Assembly (NCBI GenBank): GCA_017509785.1
Contig: JAFWOT010000009.1
Coordinates: 6,596 to 70,595, forward strand
Length of the DNA stretch: 64,000 nucleotides
DNA from: Clostridia bacterium
GTDB lineage: Bacteria > Bacillota > Clostridia > Christensenellales > CAG-138
Direction: 5' to 3'
Shown: positions 1 to 44,537 of the stretch, piece by piece
Numbering within the stretch: position 1 is the first letter of the stretch
Layout: every line of letters begins with the position of its first letter
Notes under the pieces: model-generated
Told to the model about the DNA's origin: nothing
Databases searched by the model: none
Seen by the model: the letters and a program-made list of their open reading frames with translations, nothing else
Translations under genes and position numbers: made by a program

Positions 1-201
1 TGCGGCGGCTGCCGCATAAGCCTCGTTCGCGGGGGCGAGCGCATAACGAAGTTCGCCTGCGTCGACGGACCCGATTTCAACGGTTATGAGATAGATTTCG
101 ACGAGGCCATGAGCCGCGGCAGGATGTATTTCGGTTTCGAACGCCGCGCCCATGAGCAGACCTGTAACCTTTTAAGGAAGGGGGAGAGCGAGAATGCCTA
201 A
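1..201 (+). CDS. C-terminal part of a dihydroorotate dehydrogenase electron-transfer-subunit-like FAD/NAD-binding 2Fe-2S protein (NfnA-like); 5' end outside window
   Basis: Frame 1 reads CGGCRISL...KFACVDGPDF...ENA* (TAA 199-201), the typical C-terminal 2Fe-2S motif; overlaps the start of the next gene. Confidence 0.85.
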   Translation, partial: CGGCRISLVRGGERITKFACVDGPDFNGYEIDFDEAMSRGRMYFGFERRAHEQTCNLLRKGESENA

Positions 202-31978: not shown

Positions 31979-32007
31979 TTGATTTCGACCCTGCCGTATG
32001 CTATAAT
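31979..32007 (+). promoter_or_regulatory. SigmaA promoter of tRNA-Leu
   Basis: TTGATT-N17-TATAAT with extended -10 TG. Confidence 0.75.
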
Positions 32008-32019
32008 AACGCGTAAGCT

Positions 32020-32106
32020 GCCGGTGTGATGGAATTGGCAGACGTGACGGACTCAAAATCCGTTGGTAGCAATACCGTGTGGGTTCGAGTCCCACCACCG
32101 GCACCA
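32020..32106 (+). tRNA. tRNA-Leu (anticodon CAA)
   Basis: Acceptor GCCGGTG/CACCGGC, anticodon arm ACGGA-CTCAAAA-TCCGT, long variable arm, GGTTCGAGTCC T-arm, encoded CCA. Confidence 0.96.
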
Positions 32107-32148
32107 TACCTTATGGGGTCACCGACCCCATAAGGTATGGTCTTTTAT
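32103..32148 (+). terminator. Terminator with 18-bp perfect stem overlapping the tRNA 3' end
   Basis: ACCATACCTTATGGGGTC-ACC-GACCCCATAAGGTATGGT then CTTTTATT. Confidence 0.75.
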
Positions 32149-32418
32149 TGGTAGGGACTCGAAGGGTCGTTAAGAAAACGCGAAGCGTTTTTAGACCCCG
32201 GGATTTCGTCACGGCCGAAATTGCGCGGCACGGAGTGCAAGCAATGAGAGCCATGTGCGAAATCGAGTCCCACCACCGGCGACGGCAGAGAGAGACTCGA
32301 AGGGTCGTTAAGAAAACGCGAAGCGTTTTTAGGCCCCGGGGATTTGATCCCGGCACTTTTTGAGCAGTTCGGAGAACAAGCAAAAACGTGCAATAGGGTC
32401 AAATCGAGTCCCGCCACC
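32149..32418. repeat. Two tandem tRNA-linked structured repeat units (138-bp period), each ending in a copy of the tRNA 3' portion
   Basis: About 50 near-identical nt (GACTCGAAGGGTCGTTAAGAAAACGCGAAGCGTTTTTAGRCCCCGG) at 32156 and 32294; TCGAGTCCCACCACCGGC at 32263 equals tRNA 32085-32102; TCGAGTCCCGCCACC at 32404. Confidence 0.9.
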
Positions 32419-32485
32419 CATGAACGCAGTTAAGTCACCGACCCGATAATCATGCACCCACTCCGAATCCGAAAGGCAGGAACCA

Positions 32486-33967
32486 ATGAAAACAGGCTTT
32501 GACAACGACCGGTACATTAGGATGCAGTCCCGCAACATACTCGAGAGGATCGAGCGCTTCGGCGATAAGCTCTATCTCGAGTTCGGAGGGAAGCTTTTCG
32601 ACGACTATCACGCGGCGCGCGTCGTGCCCGGCTTCAAGCCCGATACGAAGATAAACATGCTCCTTGAATTGAAGGACAGCGCCGAGATAATCCTCGCCAT
32701 CCACGCGGGGGATATCGAGCGCAACAAGATAAGGAGCGACATCGACATCGCCTATGACCGCGAGGTCTTAAGGCTCATCGACGCCTTCCGCGCAAGGGGG
32801 CTGCTCGTTTCCGGCGTCGTTATAACGAGATACCGCGAGGGGCATTCCGCGGTCGACGGCTTCATCGGCAGGCTGGAGCGTCTCGGCGTGCGCGTTTACC
32901 GCCACTACCCGATAGAGGGCTACCCCAAGAACCCCAAGCTCATAATCAGCGAGGAGGGCTTCGGCAGGAACGATTTTATCGAGACGACCCGTCCTCTCGT
33001 CGTCGTGACGGCTCCCGGTCCCGGCTCGGGCAAGCTCGCCGTCTGCCTCTCCCAGGTATATCAGGAGTACCGCCGCGGAGTGAGGGCGGGCTACGCCAAG
33101 TTCGAGACATTCCCCGTCTGGAACCTTCCTCTCACGCATCCCGTAAATCTCGCGTATGAAGCCGCCACGATCGACCTCGACGACCTCAACATGATCGACC
33201 CCTTCCATCTTGAGGCCTACGGGGTCTCCACGGTCAACTACAACCGCGACGTCGAGTCCTTCCCCGTGCTCAACGCGATGTTCACGCACATATACGGCGA
33301 GTCGCCATATAAATCCCCGACGGACATGGGCGTCAATATGATAGGCAGCTGCATCACGGACGACGAGGTCGTCTGCGCCGCCGCCCGGCAGGAGATAATC
33401 CGCCGCTACTATCAGACCGCCTGCGCATTCAAAAGGGGCAGGGCGGATATGGACATGGTCTATAAGGCCGAGCTCATAATGGACCGCGCCGGCATCAGTG
33501 TTGACGACCGTCCCGTCGTTGCCGCGGCTCTAAAGAGGGCGGAGGAGACGGGCGACGCCGCTATGGCGATAGAGCTCCCCGACGGCAGCATGATAACCGG
33601 CAAGACGGGCTCCTTTATGGGCCCCGCCGCGGGCGCGCTCGTCAACGCGCTGAAGGCCCTCGCCGGCATTAATAAGGATATCGATCTCATCTCGCCAATA
33701 ATCCTCGAGCCCATCAGGAAACTGAAGACCGATCATTTCGGCAGCGAGAACCCGCTCCTTCATTCGGACGAGGTGCTCTACGCGCTCTCCATCTGCGCCG
33801 CCACCAACCCCACTGCGGAGCTTGCCATGAAGCAGATACCCCGGCTCCGCGGCTGCGAGGCGCATTCCTCCGTAATGCTCACCCCCGCCGATAATTCCGT
33901 CTACCGCAAGCTCGGCCTCAACTGCACGAGCGAGCCGATAAGGCATGGCAACAGGGTTTACGTATAA
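32486..33967 (+). CDS. DUF1846-family protein
   Basis: KLYLEFGGKLFDDYHAARV, TAPGPGSGK, YAKFETFPVWN, YKSPTDMGVN. Confidence 0.85.
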   Translation: MKTGFDNDRYIRMQSRNILERIERFGDKLYLEFGGKLFDDYHAARVVPGFKPDTKINMLLELKDSAEIILAIHAGDIERNKIRSDIDIAYDREVLRLIDAFRARGLLVSGVVITRYREGHSAVDGFIGRLERLGVRVYRHYPIEGYPKNPKLIISEEGFGRNDFIETTRPLVVVTAPGPGSGKLAVCLSQVYQEYRRGVRAGYAKFETFPVWNLPLTHPVNLAYEAATIDLDDLNMIDPFHLEAYGVSTVNYNRDVESFPVLNAMFTHIYGESPYKSPTDMGVNMIGSCITDDEVVCAAARQEIIRRYYQTACAFKRGRADMDMVYKAELIMDRAGISVDDRPVVAAALKRAEETGDAAMAIELPDGSMITGKTGSFMGPAAGALVNALKALAGINKDIDLISPIILEPIRKLKTDHFGSENPLLHSDEVLYALSICAATNPTAELAMKQIPRLRGCEAHSSVMLTPADNSVYRKLGLNCTSEPIRHGNRVYV

Positions 33968-44419: not shown

Positions 44420-44537
44420 TGAAGAGTAAAGCTGTGTTCGTTAAGTGTTGGCCGGACGGGGAGTTGACGGCCGAACGAAAAGCCCGCGCGGGTCTCCGCG
44501 TAAGAGGCTTGCGGAATACGGCTTGCATCCCGCTTCA
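44420..44537 (+). ncRNA. THF riboswitch
   Basis: AGAGTA...CGTTAAGTG...GGGAGTTG...AACGAAAAG...GCGG...CATCCCGCT upstream of a folate gene; anti-SD CCTCCTTTCCC (44564-44574) can pair with GGGGAAGGAGG (44590-44600). Confidence 0.88.

Follow-up and report, generated by a model that had tools for sequence, protein, structure and literature searches.

Tandem gene-less units behind a clostridial tRNA-Leu gene: candidate non-autonomous cassettes of the tRNA 3' end

Genes for tRNA are classic landing sites of mobile DNA, and the accepted picture is one of gene-carrying islands and their decayed scars. CIMEs, which are gene-less derivatives of ICEs, are counted among the integrative elements at such genes. 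The attC sites of integron cassettes have the core consensus RYYYAAC/GTTRRRY, and the attP of the CTX phage is a folded single-strand site. In E. coli, tandem and gene-poor repeats of about 180 nt lie directly behind a tRNA gene at tyrT and tyrV; they are annotated as RtT sRNA, and their origin and role have been puzzling for decades. According to the available part of a preprint, rtT RNA is produced from the tyrT operon and is linked to the stringent response. In the tycheposons of Prochlorococcus, according to the portion of the source at hand (10.1101/2020.12.28.424599), partial tRNA copies flank the inserted blocks, newcomers push older blocks outward, and degenerate remnants stay behind. 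The ssrA islands of Dehalococcoides, as far as the accessible part of the report goes (PMC3146451), are tandem islands at one small-RNA gene, and a large serine recombinase adjacent to attL drives them, the enzymes being DsiB/CcrB-like.

The window analysed here comprises 64,000 nt of a Clostridia bacterium (assembly GCA_017509785.1, contig JAFWOT010000009.1, positions 6,596 to 70,595). Two gene-less units of about 130 nt, 32150-32280 and 32294-32418, were located downstream of a tRNA-Leu(CAA) gene and its terminator (Table 1). Both follow one plan: the left arm is the complement of the T-loop of the tRNA and of its T-stem 3' strand, two hairpins, P2 and P3, come next, and the right arm copies the tRNA 3' end. 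The tRNA segments concerned are the T-loop TTCGAGT, the T-stem 3' strand CCCAC and the acceptor 3' strand CACCGGC, followed by ACCA. The initial annotation of this DNA had described tandem tRNA-linked units with tRNA-Leu tail copies, and these were confirmed. Its near-invariant inner hairpin is P2, which is nearly the same in both units, and its divergent second hairpin is P3, which folds in both despite the difference in sequence; the C-GAA-G and C-GGA-G loops, which it had called DNA-type GNA triloops, are present as claimed. Over their first 50 nt the units are 96% identical. The core of P2 in unit 1 (GTTAAGAAAACGCGAAGCGTTTTTAG) recurs in other phyla. The P3 type of unit 1 was also found behind tRNA-Gly(CCC), with compensatory changes, and that of unit 2 is common to units behind tRNA-Leu(TAA). 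The right arm of unit 2 is probably the oldest copy of the tRNA end, and the terminator-half remnant behind it is probably the displaced original downstream flank. No promoter-like site was found by consensus scan between the terminator and the next gene. Full-text literature searches brought up no description of such units.

Table 1. Features of the tRNA-Leu(CAA) locus and its two-unit array (coordinates of the window).
Feature	Position	Strand	Basis or remark
Promoter-like site of the tRNA-Leu gene (TTGATT-17-TATAAT with TG)	31979-32007	+	Consensus scan, consensus match only
tRNA-Leu(CAA), anchor gene	32020-32106	+	ARAGORN; Rfam RF00005, 53.7 bits
Intrinsic terminator, 18-bp perfect hairpin (32103-32141) beginning within the tRNA ACCA, then T-tract CTTTTATT	32103-32149	+	
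Unit 1, left arm GGTAGGGACTCGAA	32150-32163	+	Reverse complement of tRNA T-loop and T-stem 3' strand
Unit 1, hairpin P2 (GGGTC..AAAACGC-GAA-GCGTTTT..GACCC)	32164-32198	+	
Unit 1, hairpin P3 (GATTTCG...GCAC-GGA-GTGC...CGAAATC)	32202-32264	+	
Unit 1, right arm TCGAGTCCCACCACCGGC	32263-32280	+	18/18 copy of tRNA 3' part, T-loop into acceptor strand
Unit 2, left arm GACTCGAA	32294-32301	+	Complements T-loop only
Unit 2, hairpin P2	32302-32338	+	Near-identical to P2 of unit 1
Unit 2, hairpin P3, other type (GATTTGATCC...TTC-GGA-GAA...GGGTCAAATC)	32343-32405	+	
Unit 2, right arm TCGAGTCCCGCCACC	32404-32418	+	Decayed tRNA 3' copy, 14/15 match
Decayed copy of terminator right half, GTCACCGACCCGATAA versus GTCACCGACCCCATAA at 32118-32133	32434-32449	+	
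DUF1846-family gene, first ordinary gene past the array	32486-33967	+	Boundary, outside the element

As in the tRNA islands, partial tRNA copies flank the blocks at this kind of locus, and in this genome islands are found at the same tRNA ends as units; beside the tRNA of one island lies a serine recombinase, as one lies next to attL in the ssrA islands. The units nevertheless differ from these islands in their size of 130 to 190 nt, in the absence of any gene, and in that no integrase is tied to the family to which they belong (family 1). Their three-way-junction fold and mirror arm are absent from the tycheposon and ssrA-island descriptions, as far as the available parts of those texts extend.

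Unlike tRNA islands, the units occur at 12 of the 46 tRNA genes of the genome, each with a copy of its own 3' end within 2.5 kb downstream. The units of this genome come in at least three architectures. When a 16-nt 3' segment was searched on the same strand with at most two mismatches, own copies were found within 600 nt downstream of 11 of the 46 tRNA genes and upstream of none, so that the copies exceed chance. All 13 family matches obtained with nhmmer in the genome fall in arrays behind five tRNA genes, and a loose search for units detached from tRNA ends gave only chance matches inside genes. A strong terminator stands between tRNA and units in every array of the genome that was read. 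The arms are GGGACTCGAA and TCGAGTCCC at the array described here, and their sequence changes with the local tRNA. The expectation of closing stems that match the local tRNA was borne out at every locus examined, as was that of a large family tied to tRNA genes, since units stand behind many of them.

The position of the junction with tRNA-derived sequence could be evaluated in 24 of 31 units, the other seven being not evaluable. Identity with the tRNA starts at T-loop position 56 in 15 units and at positions 55, 57 and 59 in three each. An exact complement of 10 to 13 nt from position 54 was present in all 24. The 55/56 junction is fixed across eight tRNA species. In 13 units that were informative, the left arm fitted the upstream tRNA-end copy better in eight cases and the downstream copy in four, with one tie, and two related genomes gave opposite answers as to its affiliation.

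Both units in the window fold better than expected by chance, as judged against shuffled sequences. As RNA, units 1 and 2 gave z = -4.1 and z = -3.3, and as DNA z = -4.2 and z = -2.9, with none of 200 shuffles equally stable. The outer stem of unit 2 is closed in the centroid fold only and open in the MFE fold. The left arm of unit 1 has two possible partners, the real tRNA end (32084-32096) and the right arm; with the T-loop and T-stem 3' strand of the real tRNA it extends the terminator hairpin (32080-32166, DNA dG -31.6 kcal/mol, z -8.4). A three-way-junction fold is common to 28 of the 31 units. Compensatory changes, which the initial annotation had proposed to look for, were found in the stems. 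In the RNAalifold consensus 8 of 14 pairs stay paired through double changes, and the tip hairpin of P3 exists in eight stem versions, each of them fully paired. Judging from this common fold, the double changes and the fully paired tip versions, the structure of the units is under selection.

The two strands fold about equally, with mean energies of -60.7 and -59.0 kcal/mol. Among about 1,500 pairs, 56 G.T pairs were counted on the plus strand and 95 on the minus strand; the helices are almost purely Watson-Crick on either strand, and the G.T and A.C counts revealed no strand preference. These counts do not bear out the earlier proposal that the units are recognised as folded single-stranded DNA. 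That the units fold as single-stranded DNA is plausible. Triloops make up 51 of the 68 hairpin loops, and the loop is GAA or GGA in 36; loops of this kind stand out for their stability in DNA, not in RNA.

The orthologous tRNA-Leu(GAG) site was searched in 14 genomes and examined in ten of the same genus, of which four were empty and six filled. The flanks of the six filled sites are identical, and the units between them differ in their terminators and hairpins. At the tRNA-Leu(CAA) site all six relatives examined carry different units. Direct repeats of the tRNA 3' part border the inserted blocks, and the tRNA gene is intact. The copy-number variation that had been foreseen is therefore real, both number and content differing among close relatives, empty sites included. 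At the tRNA-Leu(GAG) locus, three genomes (G000, G007 and G008) share the terminator and the left arm and have different P2 and P3 hairpins, which means that inner hairpins are swapped in place and that a unit is not always moved as one block. One module was found nested within P3 or P2 of other units. The terminator halves that flank successive blocks are mutually related, which local duplication fits as well as import. The sequential addition of cassettes that the initial annotation had proposed may have taken place; local duplication and in-place swapping of inner hairpins also occur. One 168-nt contig joins position 32295 back to 32158 (period 138), a join that would look the same for a circle and for an extra tandem copy.

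The exact 26-nt pattern of the inner hairpin was present in 21 species genomes of Bacillota and Actinomycetota. A tRNA gene lies upstream on the same strand in 19 of these, in 18 within 350 nt. Matches to the covariance model were obtained in 7 of 151 genomes of the order, a patchy spread. Three weak model matches (L085, L087 and L106) were rejected as they have no tRNA gene in the locus, and L085 and L106 showed no unit features on reading. Another locus, L086, contains a unit between two tRNA-Ser end copies, although ARAGORN calls no tRNA there. In Collinsella the whole block of tRNA plus unit is repeated three to four times, and each unit is enclosed by two terminators. Units of distant taxa have a small hairpin after the left arm with GNRA loops (GCAA, GTGA, GACA, GAGA, GAAA). 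No unit copy, and hence no vehicle, was found in phage and plasmid collections or in viral contigs. Rfam scans of the window and seven other loci, at gathering thresholds and by E-value, picked up tRNA, a THF riboswitch and, next to a unit, one Gut-1 RNA, and nothing else; no Rfam family matched the units themselves.

The E. coli tyrT/RtT repeats are, by comparison of the sequences, built on the same plan as the units. They end in a copy of the tRNA-Tyr 3' end, and a left arm, GGGGAAGGAT, about 110 nt upstream mirrors ATCCTTCCCC, so that the repeat folds with a closing stem made of the tRNA-end copy and its mirror image. An exact 20-mer, GCGAAGCGCGCAGCGCTGAG, is common to the RtT repeats and to a Firmicute unit in an Anaerovoracaceae genome. 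Of 5,426 E. coli genomes, 4,726 have RtT repeats, at one to nine places each. They differ from the arrays described here in that the right arm begins, by reading, at T-loop position 58 instead of 56, in the lack of an intrinsic terminator after the tRNA, and in being known from one tRNA locus, whereas the units stand at many tRNA species. The RtT model RF00391 (threshold 45 bits) gave no match in the genome at E values up to 1, with a positive E. coli control, and none in 32000-32500 or in seven unit-bearing loci up to the same E value.

With the same plan, the shared 20-mer and the covarying stems, the units could themselves be RtT-like noncoding RNAs, which would arise by read-through from the tRNA gene or by transcription from the opposite strand and be freed when the tRNA-like 3' end is processed. 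The GNRA loops in distant taxa are typical of RNA, and the conservation of P2 across phyla suggests a function. We regard this reading as unlikely. An 18-bp terminator with a T-tract separates tRNA and units, which makes a co-transcribed RNA less likely, and no promoter-like site precedes the next gene; in Collinsella the units are boxed in by terminators on both sides. The low G.U content of the helices, the lack of a strand signal, the prevalence of triloops and of GAA or GGA among them, and the failure of RF00391 to match also speak against it, and presence or absence and swapping among close relatives would be unusual for a functional RNA gene. Roles for such RNAs in tRNA maturation, in the stringent response or as decoys for proteins that bind the T-loop or acceptor, the arms being a by-product of origin, appear similarly doubtful. 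The alternative of a tRNA-linked ncRNA family, already raised in the initial annotation, thus retains the structure, the covariation and the RtT-like plan in its favour and is weakened by the terminator. Contigs assembled from sequencing runs fragment at the repeats, and those from RNA libraries cover only the tRNA in this region; they are evidence neither for nor against expression.

It is also conceivable, with low probability, that no dedicated machinery is involved and that the mirror arm arises by replication template switching at the quasi-palindrome of tRNA and terminator. The stretch from T-loop to left arm is indeed a long imperfect palindrome centred on the terminator loop, and a minimal form behind tRNA-Cys consists of arms without inner hairpins. 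Arrays might grow and shrink by unequal crossing-over between tRNA ends, with the units as selfish or neutral by-products; the repeated Collinsella block, the varying number of RtT places in E. coli and the negative enzyme search reported below fit this notion, which we think rather improbable. Just as hesitantly, gene conversion that uses the near-universal T-loop sequence GGTTCGAATCC of both arms might be considered as the way in which inner hairpins spread, in view of the swaps under a constant terminator and left arm and of the nested module, but microhomologies of 8 to 11 nt are short for efficient gene conversion. What weighs against all such processes is that the junction, fixed at 55/56 over eight tRNA species, and the clean filled sites with a new terminator each time look site-specific. 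Moreover, for two phyla to share an exact 26-nt hairpin pattern, something larger than a by-product must have been transferred horizontally, and conserved junction nucleotides together with covarying stems imply selection on the fold.

We favour, at roughly even probability, the reading that these gene-less units belong to a family of small non-autonomous integrative cassettes, which build up at the T-loop and 3' end of tRNA genes. In its favour are the linkage of the family to tRNA genes, the arms that follow the local tRNA, the fixed junction, the empty and filled alleles, the patchy spread, the tRNA ends shared with islands, the selected fold and the terminator between tRNA and units. Architecture, distribution, tRNA linkage, presence/absence polymorphism, junction, covariation and lack of genes are observed, while site-specific recombination, an enzyme in trans, the order of addition and any role of single-stranded folding are inferred from them. 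Crossover or joining would take place inside the T-loop, between positions 55 and 56. With every event the tRNA would gain a substitute 3' end together with a new terminator, and the old 3' end would be displaced downstream, where it would remain as the right arm of a unit. Tandem arrays would result from repeated events together with local duplication. The enzyme would not be encoded by the unit and would act in trans. The likeliest candidate is a site-specific recombinase from tRNA-integrating islands, since such units also serve as the far-end module in gene-carrying insertions. In the three-way junction of the cassette the mirror-image left arm would pair with the tRNA-end copy, and P3 would stack directly on this stem, which would place the branch point at the junction to tRNA-derived sequence. 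Such a fold may rebuild the attachment site within one strand.

Less probably, the cassettes could be gene-free and integron-like, of about 140 to 190 nt, docking at tRNA T-loops as a single-strand three-way junction, with modules that are exchangeable across phyla. The mirror arm and P3 would then rebuild a duplex attachment site in the folded strand, so that a recombinase encoded by the host or by an island could insert the cassette straight from single-stranded DNA supplied by conjugation, transformation or replication. In this view the inner hairpins would act as functional modules, with a range that takes in rumen Clostridia, Collinsella and the E. coli RtT repeats. Like attC, ORF-less integron cassettes and the CTX attP, the units have imperfect inverted arms that close a variable branched middle; tandem units at one docking site, an enzyme that would be encoded elsewhere and a branch point at the presumed crossover are further integron-like traits, and if the single-strand reading holds, the units would work in the manner of these sites. 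However, the unit arms copy the local tRNA instead of attC-type core sites, there is no attI and no cargo, and no strand asymmetry was seen in the fold energies or G.T counts.

Compared with the accepted picture of tRNA-associated mobile DNA, the units are small gene-less cassettes with a conserved fold, a T-loop junction, a mirror of the tRNA end and an inner hairpin that is conserved between phyla. If mobile, they would be the smallest site-specific integrative elements so far and a substrate where islands dock and recombine; if RNAs, they would form a large unrecognised family. In either case they explain many assembly breaks and 'pseudo-tRNA' fragments near tRNA genes in metagenome-assembled genomes, and they allow the E. 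coli tyrT/RtT repeats to be approached by comparison.

Recombinases were searched for in the neighbourhood of the units. The neighbours of three arrays are ordinary genes, with no recombinase in or beside the units. None of the tyrosine recombinases, serine recombinases or the Y1 transposase of the genome lies beside a family-1 array, and no Phage_integrase match was found beside any array. The loci of relatives contained no recombinase in or next to any family-1 unit, and tblastn with the 13 recombinases of the genome gave no match in any of the foreign loci fetched. Large-serine-recombinase genes of three relatives (G022, G013 and G167) are on contigs other than those of the units or far from them. 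These results are consistent with the earlier suggestion of an enzyme encoded elsewhere; the adjacent tyrosine recombinase that had been considered was not seen. The negative results also weigh against the cassette reading, as do the lack of copies in phage, plasmid and viral sequences, the ambiguous affiliation of the left arm, the exchange of inner hairpins in place and the related terminator halves of successive blocks. The suggested link to an HUH nuclease found no support either, the only Y1 transposase match of the genome being a RAYT-like gene with REP palindromes of its own that are unrelated to the units.

Like REPs and BIMEs, the units are small gene-less mosaics of a few hairpin types. 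They are rich in hairpins with DNA-type triloops, occur in many copies, and share the genome with one Y1 transposase, as would be expected of REP/REPIN-like or IS200/IS605-derived palindromes that an HUH (Y1) transposase moves as single strands. This origin is nevertheless very improbable and was largely refuted, because the Y1 gene has REPs of its own, another palindrome (ACTAACCAATGGGGACGGTTCTC..GGTTAGT) whose inverted copies stand on either side of it, and the units are not dispersed but restricted to tRNA ends. In addition, the units have tRNA-end duplications, being bounded by target duplications of 15 to 20 nt, and HUH transposition is not known to make target duplications.

Gene-carrying insertions at tRNA ends were also inspected. 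'Islands' of 2 to 6 kb between tRNA-Leu(CAA) and the DUF1846 gene in relatives were discarded as candidates; they consist of ordinary genes without recombinases. In G013 a family-1 unit closes a gene-bearing insertion of 4 kb, which contains an HNH nuclease and no recombinase. This nuclease and the HNH-like gene in the tRNA-Arg island are unrelated. At its far end a 33-kb island carries a unit of the sister family (family 2), and its gene closest to the tRNA encodes a large serine recombinase of 532 amino acids; this is the only link to an enzyme that was found, and it concerns the sister family. A defence island of 11 kb lies between two tRNA-Arg end copies, inside an array.

The array behind tRNA-Leu(CAA) was re-read in the window sequence and refolded. 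It contains two gene-less units of about 130 nt, each made up of a left arm, two hairpins (P2 and P3) and a right arm, with the two arms pairing as a closing stem (P1). All sequence claims of the initial annotation on both units were borne out. Units 1 and 2 are 96% identical over the first 50 nt; their P3 sequences differ, but pairing is present in both. Folding was better than that of shuffled sequences both as RNA (z -4.1 for unit 1, -3.3 for unit 2) and as DNA (z -4.2 and -2.9). Overlooked before was that the tRNA T-loop and the 3' strand of the T-stem have their reverse complement in the left arm. The left arm therefore has two possible partners, the right arm, which closes the unit, or the real tRNA end. 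Paired backwards with the tRNA, it would make 32080-32166 a single long hairpin with the terminator loop at its centre (dG -31.6 kcal/mol as DNA, z -8.4). Over 32158-32295, a 168-nt assembled contig from run X11 links 32295 back to 32158 with a period of 138, and 168-nt contigs were also obtained there from runs X7 and X9. Either an additional tandem unit 1 or a circle of 138 nt would explain this join, and the contigs cannot discriminate between them.

Features of the tRNA-Leu(CAA) array and a riboswitch elsewhere in the window (window coordinates)
Feature	Position	Remarks
Promoter-like site of tRNA-Leu(CAA)	31979-32007	
tRNA-Leu(CAA)	32020-32106	
Terminator, perfect 18-bp hairpin	32103-32141	begins within the ACCA of the tRNA, then CTTTTATT
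Unit 1 left arm	32150-32163	GGTAGGGACTCGAA
Unit 1 hairpin P2	32164-32198	
Unit 1 hairpin P3	32202-32264	
Unit 1 right arm	32263-32280	tRNA copy, T-loop into acceptor strand, 18/18
Unit 2 left arm	32294-32301	GACTCGAA
Unit 2 hairpin P2	32302-32338	
Unit 2 hairpin P3	32343-32405	
Unit 2 right arm	32404-32418	tRNA copy, T-loop into acceptor strand, 14/15
Half-terminator copy, decayed, 3' of unit 2	32434-32449	
DUF1846 gene start	32486	
THF (tetrahydrofolate) riboswitch aptamer	44420-44537	+ strand; 78.2 bits (gathering score 36)

A BLAST search of the window's genome with unit 1 gave more copies behind tRNA-Gly(CCC) and tRNA-Leu(TAA). Twelve of the 46 tRNA genes of this genome are followed within 2.5 kb by a same-strand copy of their own 3' segment; within 600 nt, such copies lie downstream of 11 of the 46 genes and upstream of none. 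Five further loci (Lys-CTT, Cys, Ser-GCT, Gly-GCC and the far end of an island at Gly-TCC) were regarded as degenerate or special cases, judged by reading without a uniform counting rule. The arms were those of the local tRNA at every locus read. The inner hairpins were drawn from few types common to several tRNA loci: the P3 type of unit 1 also occurs behind tRNA-Gly(CCC), with compensatory changes, and that of unit 2 behind tRNA-Leu(TAA). At least three architectures are present. An nhmmer profile of family 1, the type in the window, matched 13 places, all within arrays behind five tRNA genes. In family 2, found at Arg-ACG, Met, Leu-CAG and Tyr, the left arm mirrors the 5' strand of the T-stem plus the T-loop, and the right arm is the entire T-arm, its loop longer by one base. 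Family 3 uses Pro-GGG. Its module of about 100 nt (...CATCCGGTGGATG...GTCCGCCCC; L029:1750-1960 and loci L024, L022, L050, L047 and L068) stands alone behind this tRNA and is also nested in P3 or P2 of family-1 units, as would be expected if insertion could also take place at the tips of hairpins.

The junction with the tRNA was evaluable in 24 units from eight tRNA species, while 7 of the 31 distinct units were not scorable. Identity with the tRNA began at T-loop position 56 in 15 of the 24 and at positions 55, 57 and 59 in three each; the left arm was exactly complementary from position 54 over 10-13 nt. P3 adjoins the right arm without a spacer, and the branch point of the three-way junction is therefore the junction between element and tRNA sequence. 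The minimum-energy fold was this same three-way junction in 28 of the 31 units, and two more retained P1 and P2; in unit 2 of the window, P1 appeared in the centroid fold only. RNAalifold predicted 14 pairs for 27 units, eight of which keep pairing through two-sided changes. The P3 tip was N4-GGA-N4 in 22 of 31 units, with eight stem versions, every one fully paired. The conserved fold over divergent sequence that had been proposed from two units thus shows covariation.

Triloops accounted for 51 of 68 hairpin loops, and 36 were GAA or GGA, mainly closed by C-G. GNA triloops with such closure are especially stable in DNA. Helices were nearly all Watson-Crick (56 G.T pairs on the plus strand versus 95 on the minus strand, of about 1,500), and both strands folded about equally well. 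These data therefore indicate selection on the fold in some single-stranded form, of either strand and as RNA or DNA. The boldest reading, a gene-free integron-like system inserting as folded single-stranded DNA, appears improbable. It is likewise rather unlikely that the units are an RNA like RtT, the repeat sRNA of E. coli tyrT/tyrV (Rfam RF00391). The tyrT/tyrV repeats have the same plan and have an exact 20-mer in common with one Firmicute unit; among 5,426 E. coli genomes, 4,726 contain them, at 1-9 places each. The RtT covariance model recognised neither the units of the window's genome nor those of seven other unit-bearing loci. A preprint reports that exonuclease-resistant DNA coverage of tyrT-rttR rises under stress.

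The orthologous tRNA-Leu(GAG) site was examined in 10 of 14 same-genus genomes. In four it was empty, the tRNA being followed directly by a single terminator. The other six carried, between identical flanks, a block of new terminator, spacer, left arm, P2, P3 and tRNA-end copy. Terminators and hairpin types varied between these genomes, and three had terminator and left arm in common with different P2 and P3. At tRNA-Leu(CAA), units of other types and numbers were present in all six relatives examined. Units are thus gained, lost and replaced, with inner hairpins also swapped in place, and the copy-number variation envisaged in the initial annotation does occur. The likeliest reading, to which we give about an even chance, is that the units are non-autonomous integrative cassettes. 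Such a cassette would dock at the T-loop, supply a replacement tRNA end and terminator, accrete into arrays and be mobilised in trans.

A different left-end sequence was shared downstream of tRNA-Leu(GAG) in the window's genome (L064, G000:C10) and of tRNA-Leu(TAA) in genome G041 (L076:360-520). Its parts, in order, are the terminator AAAATCCGGGTTT..., CTTAAAATGCCTAAAA and a series of GTTGCACAC motifs; in G041 it stands at the head of a 3-kb insertion that includes a sigma-factor-like gene. These tRNA ends are used by a further type of element as well.

Family-1 and family-2 units use the same tRNA sites as gene-carrying insertions. A 4-kb insertion (HNH nuclease, DUF3089) separates tRNA-Leu(CAA) from a family-1 unit in genome G013. 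In the window's genome, an 11-kb defence island lies between two copies of the tRNA-Arg(ACG) end, followed by another unit (L077, G000:C2:24100-36300); it encodes a Kiwa KwaB-like protein, two large WD40 proteins, an AAA_14/DUF4143 ATPase and an HNH-like protein, and contains no recombinase gene. At tRNA-Gly(TCC), a 33-kb island has a family-2 unit as its far end, and the island gene adjacent to the tRNA encodes a 532-aa large serine recombinase; another family-2 unit closes a 1.85-kb insertion at tRNA-Trp. The suggested linkage to a recombinase gained no support for family-1 units, none being found in or beside any of them in the window's genome, relatives' loci or foreign loci. That the units are by-products of recombination or template switching, without dedicated machinery, is a minor possibility.

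The suggested link to an HUH nuclease fared no better. The sole Y1 transposase of the window's genome is a RAYT-like gene of about 236 aa outside the window (G000:C23:17720-18790), with inverted copies of a palindrome of about 35 nt (ACTAACCAATGGGGACGGTTCTC.GTGGTTAGT) on either side. The arrangement resembles that of a classical REPIN/RAYT system whose REP palindromes are unrelated to the tRNA units, so that a HUH/REP-like element is largely excluded as an explanation and very improbable.

Tycheposons (10.1101/2020.12.28.424599) are described as accreting in tandem at tRNA genes, separated by partial copies of the tRNA, and Dehalococcoides ssrA islands (PMC3146451) as doing so at the tmRNA gene, with partial copies and serine recombinases. 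Gene-less folded units with mirror arms did not feature in the parts of these accounts consulted. A full-text literature search of incomplete coverage likewise returned none.

The exact P2 core pattern was present in 21 species genomes, including Collinsella, Slackia, Coriobacteriaceae, Anaerovoracaceae, Desulfitobacteriia, Oscillospiraceae and rumen Clostridia. The association with tRNA genes extended to these taxa: a same-strand tRNA gene lay upstream in 19 of the 21, within 350 nt in 18 and 1.15 kb away in the other, with a GNAT gene and a second unit between. The two exceptions were an array running off its contig and a unit split from its tRNA by a 3-kb insertion. The arms again fitted the local tRNA (Arg, Ser, Glu, Pro, Gly or Leu), as the initial annotation had supposed for closing stems. 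A covariance model built on 27 units matched 7 of 151 genomes sampled from the order, and strong matches adjoined a tRNA gene or tRNA-end copy; the distribution in the order is patchy. No copy was found in the viral contigs, phage records and plasmids searched.

At L100 (G022:C25, about 35-135, reverse strand), the tRNA gene beside the unit has visible ends but received no call because part of it reads N. In Collinsella (L015:911-2268, L010, L012, L013, L017 and L026), the promoter, tRNA-Arg(ACG), terminator, unit, tRNA-end copy and second terminator are repeated 3-4 times as a single block whose period is about 425-455 nt. An uncultured Clostridia genome has a Gut-1 RNA (RF01706) match directly 3' of a unit that follows tRNA-Arg(CCG) (L016:1616-1686, + strand, 52.8 bits, gathering score 50). 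Runs of small GATGT/GATAT hairpins after tRNA-Tyr and tRNA-Gln in the window's genome resemble the sequence at this match.
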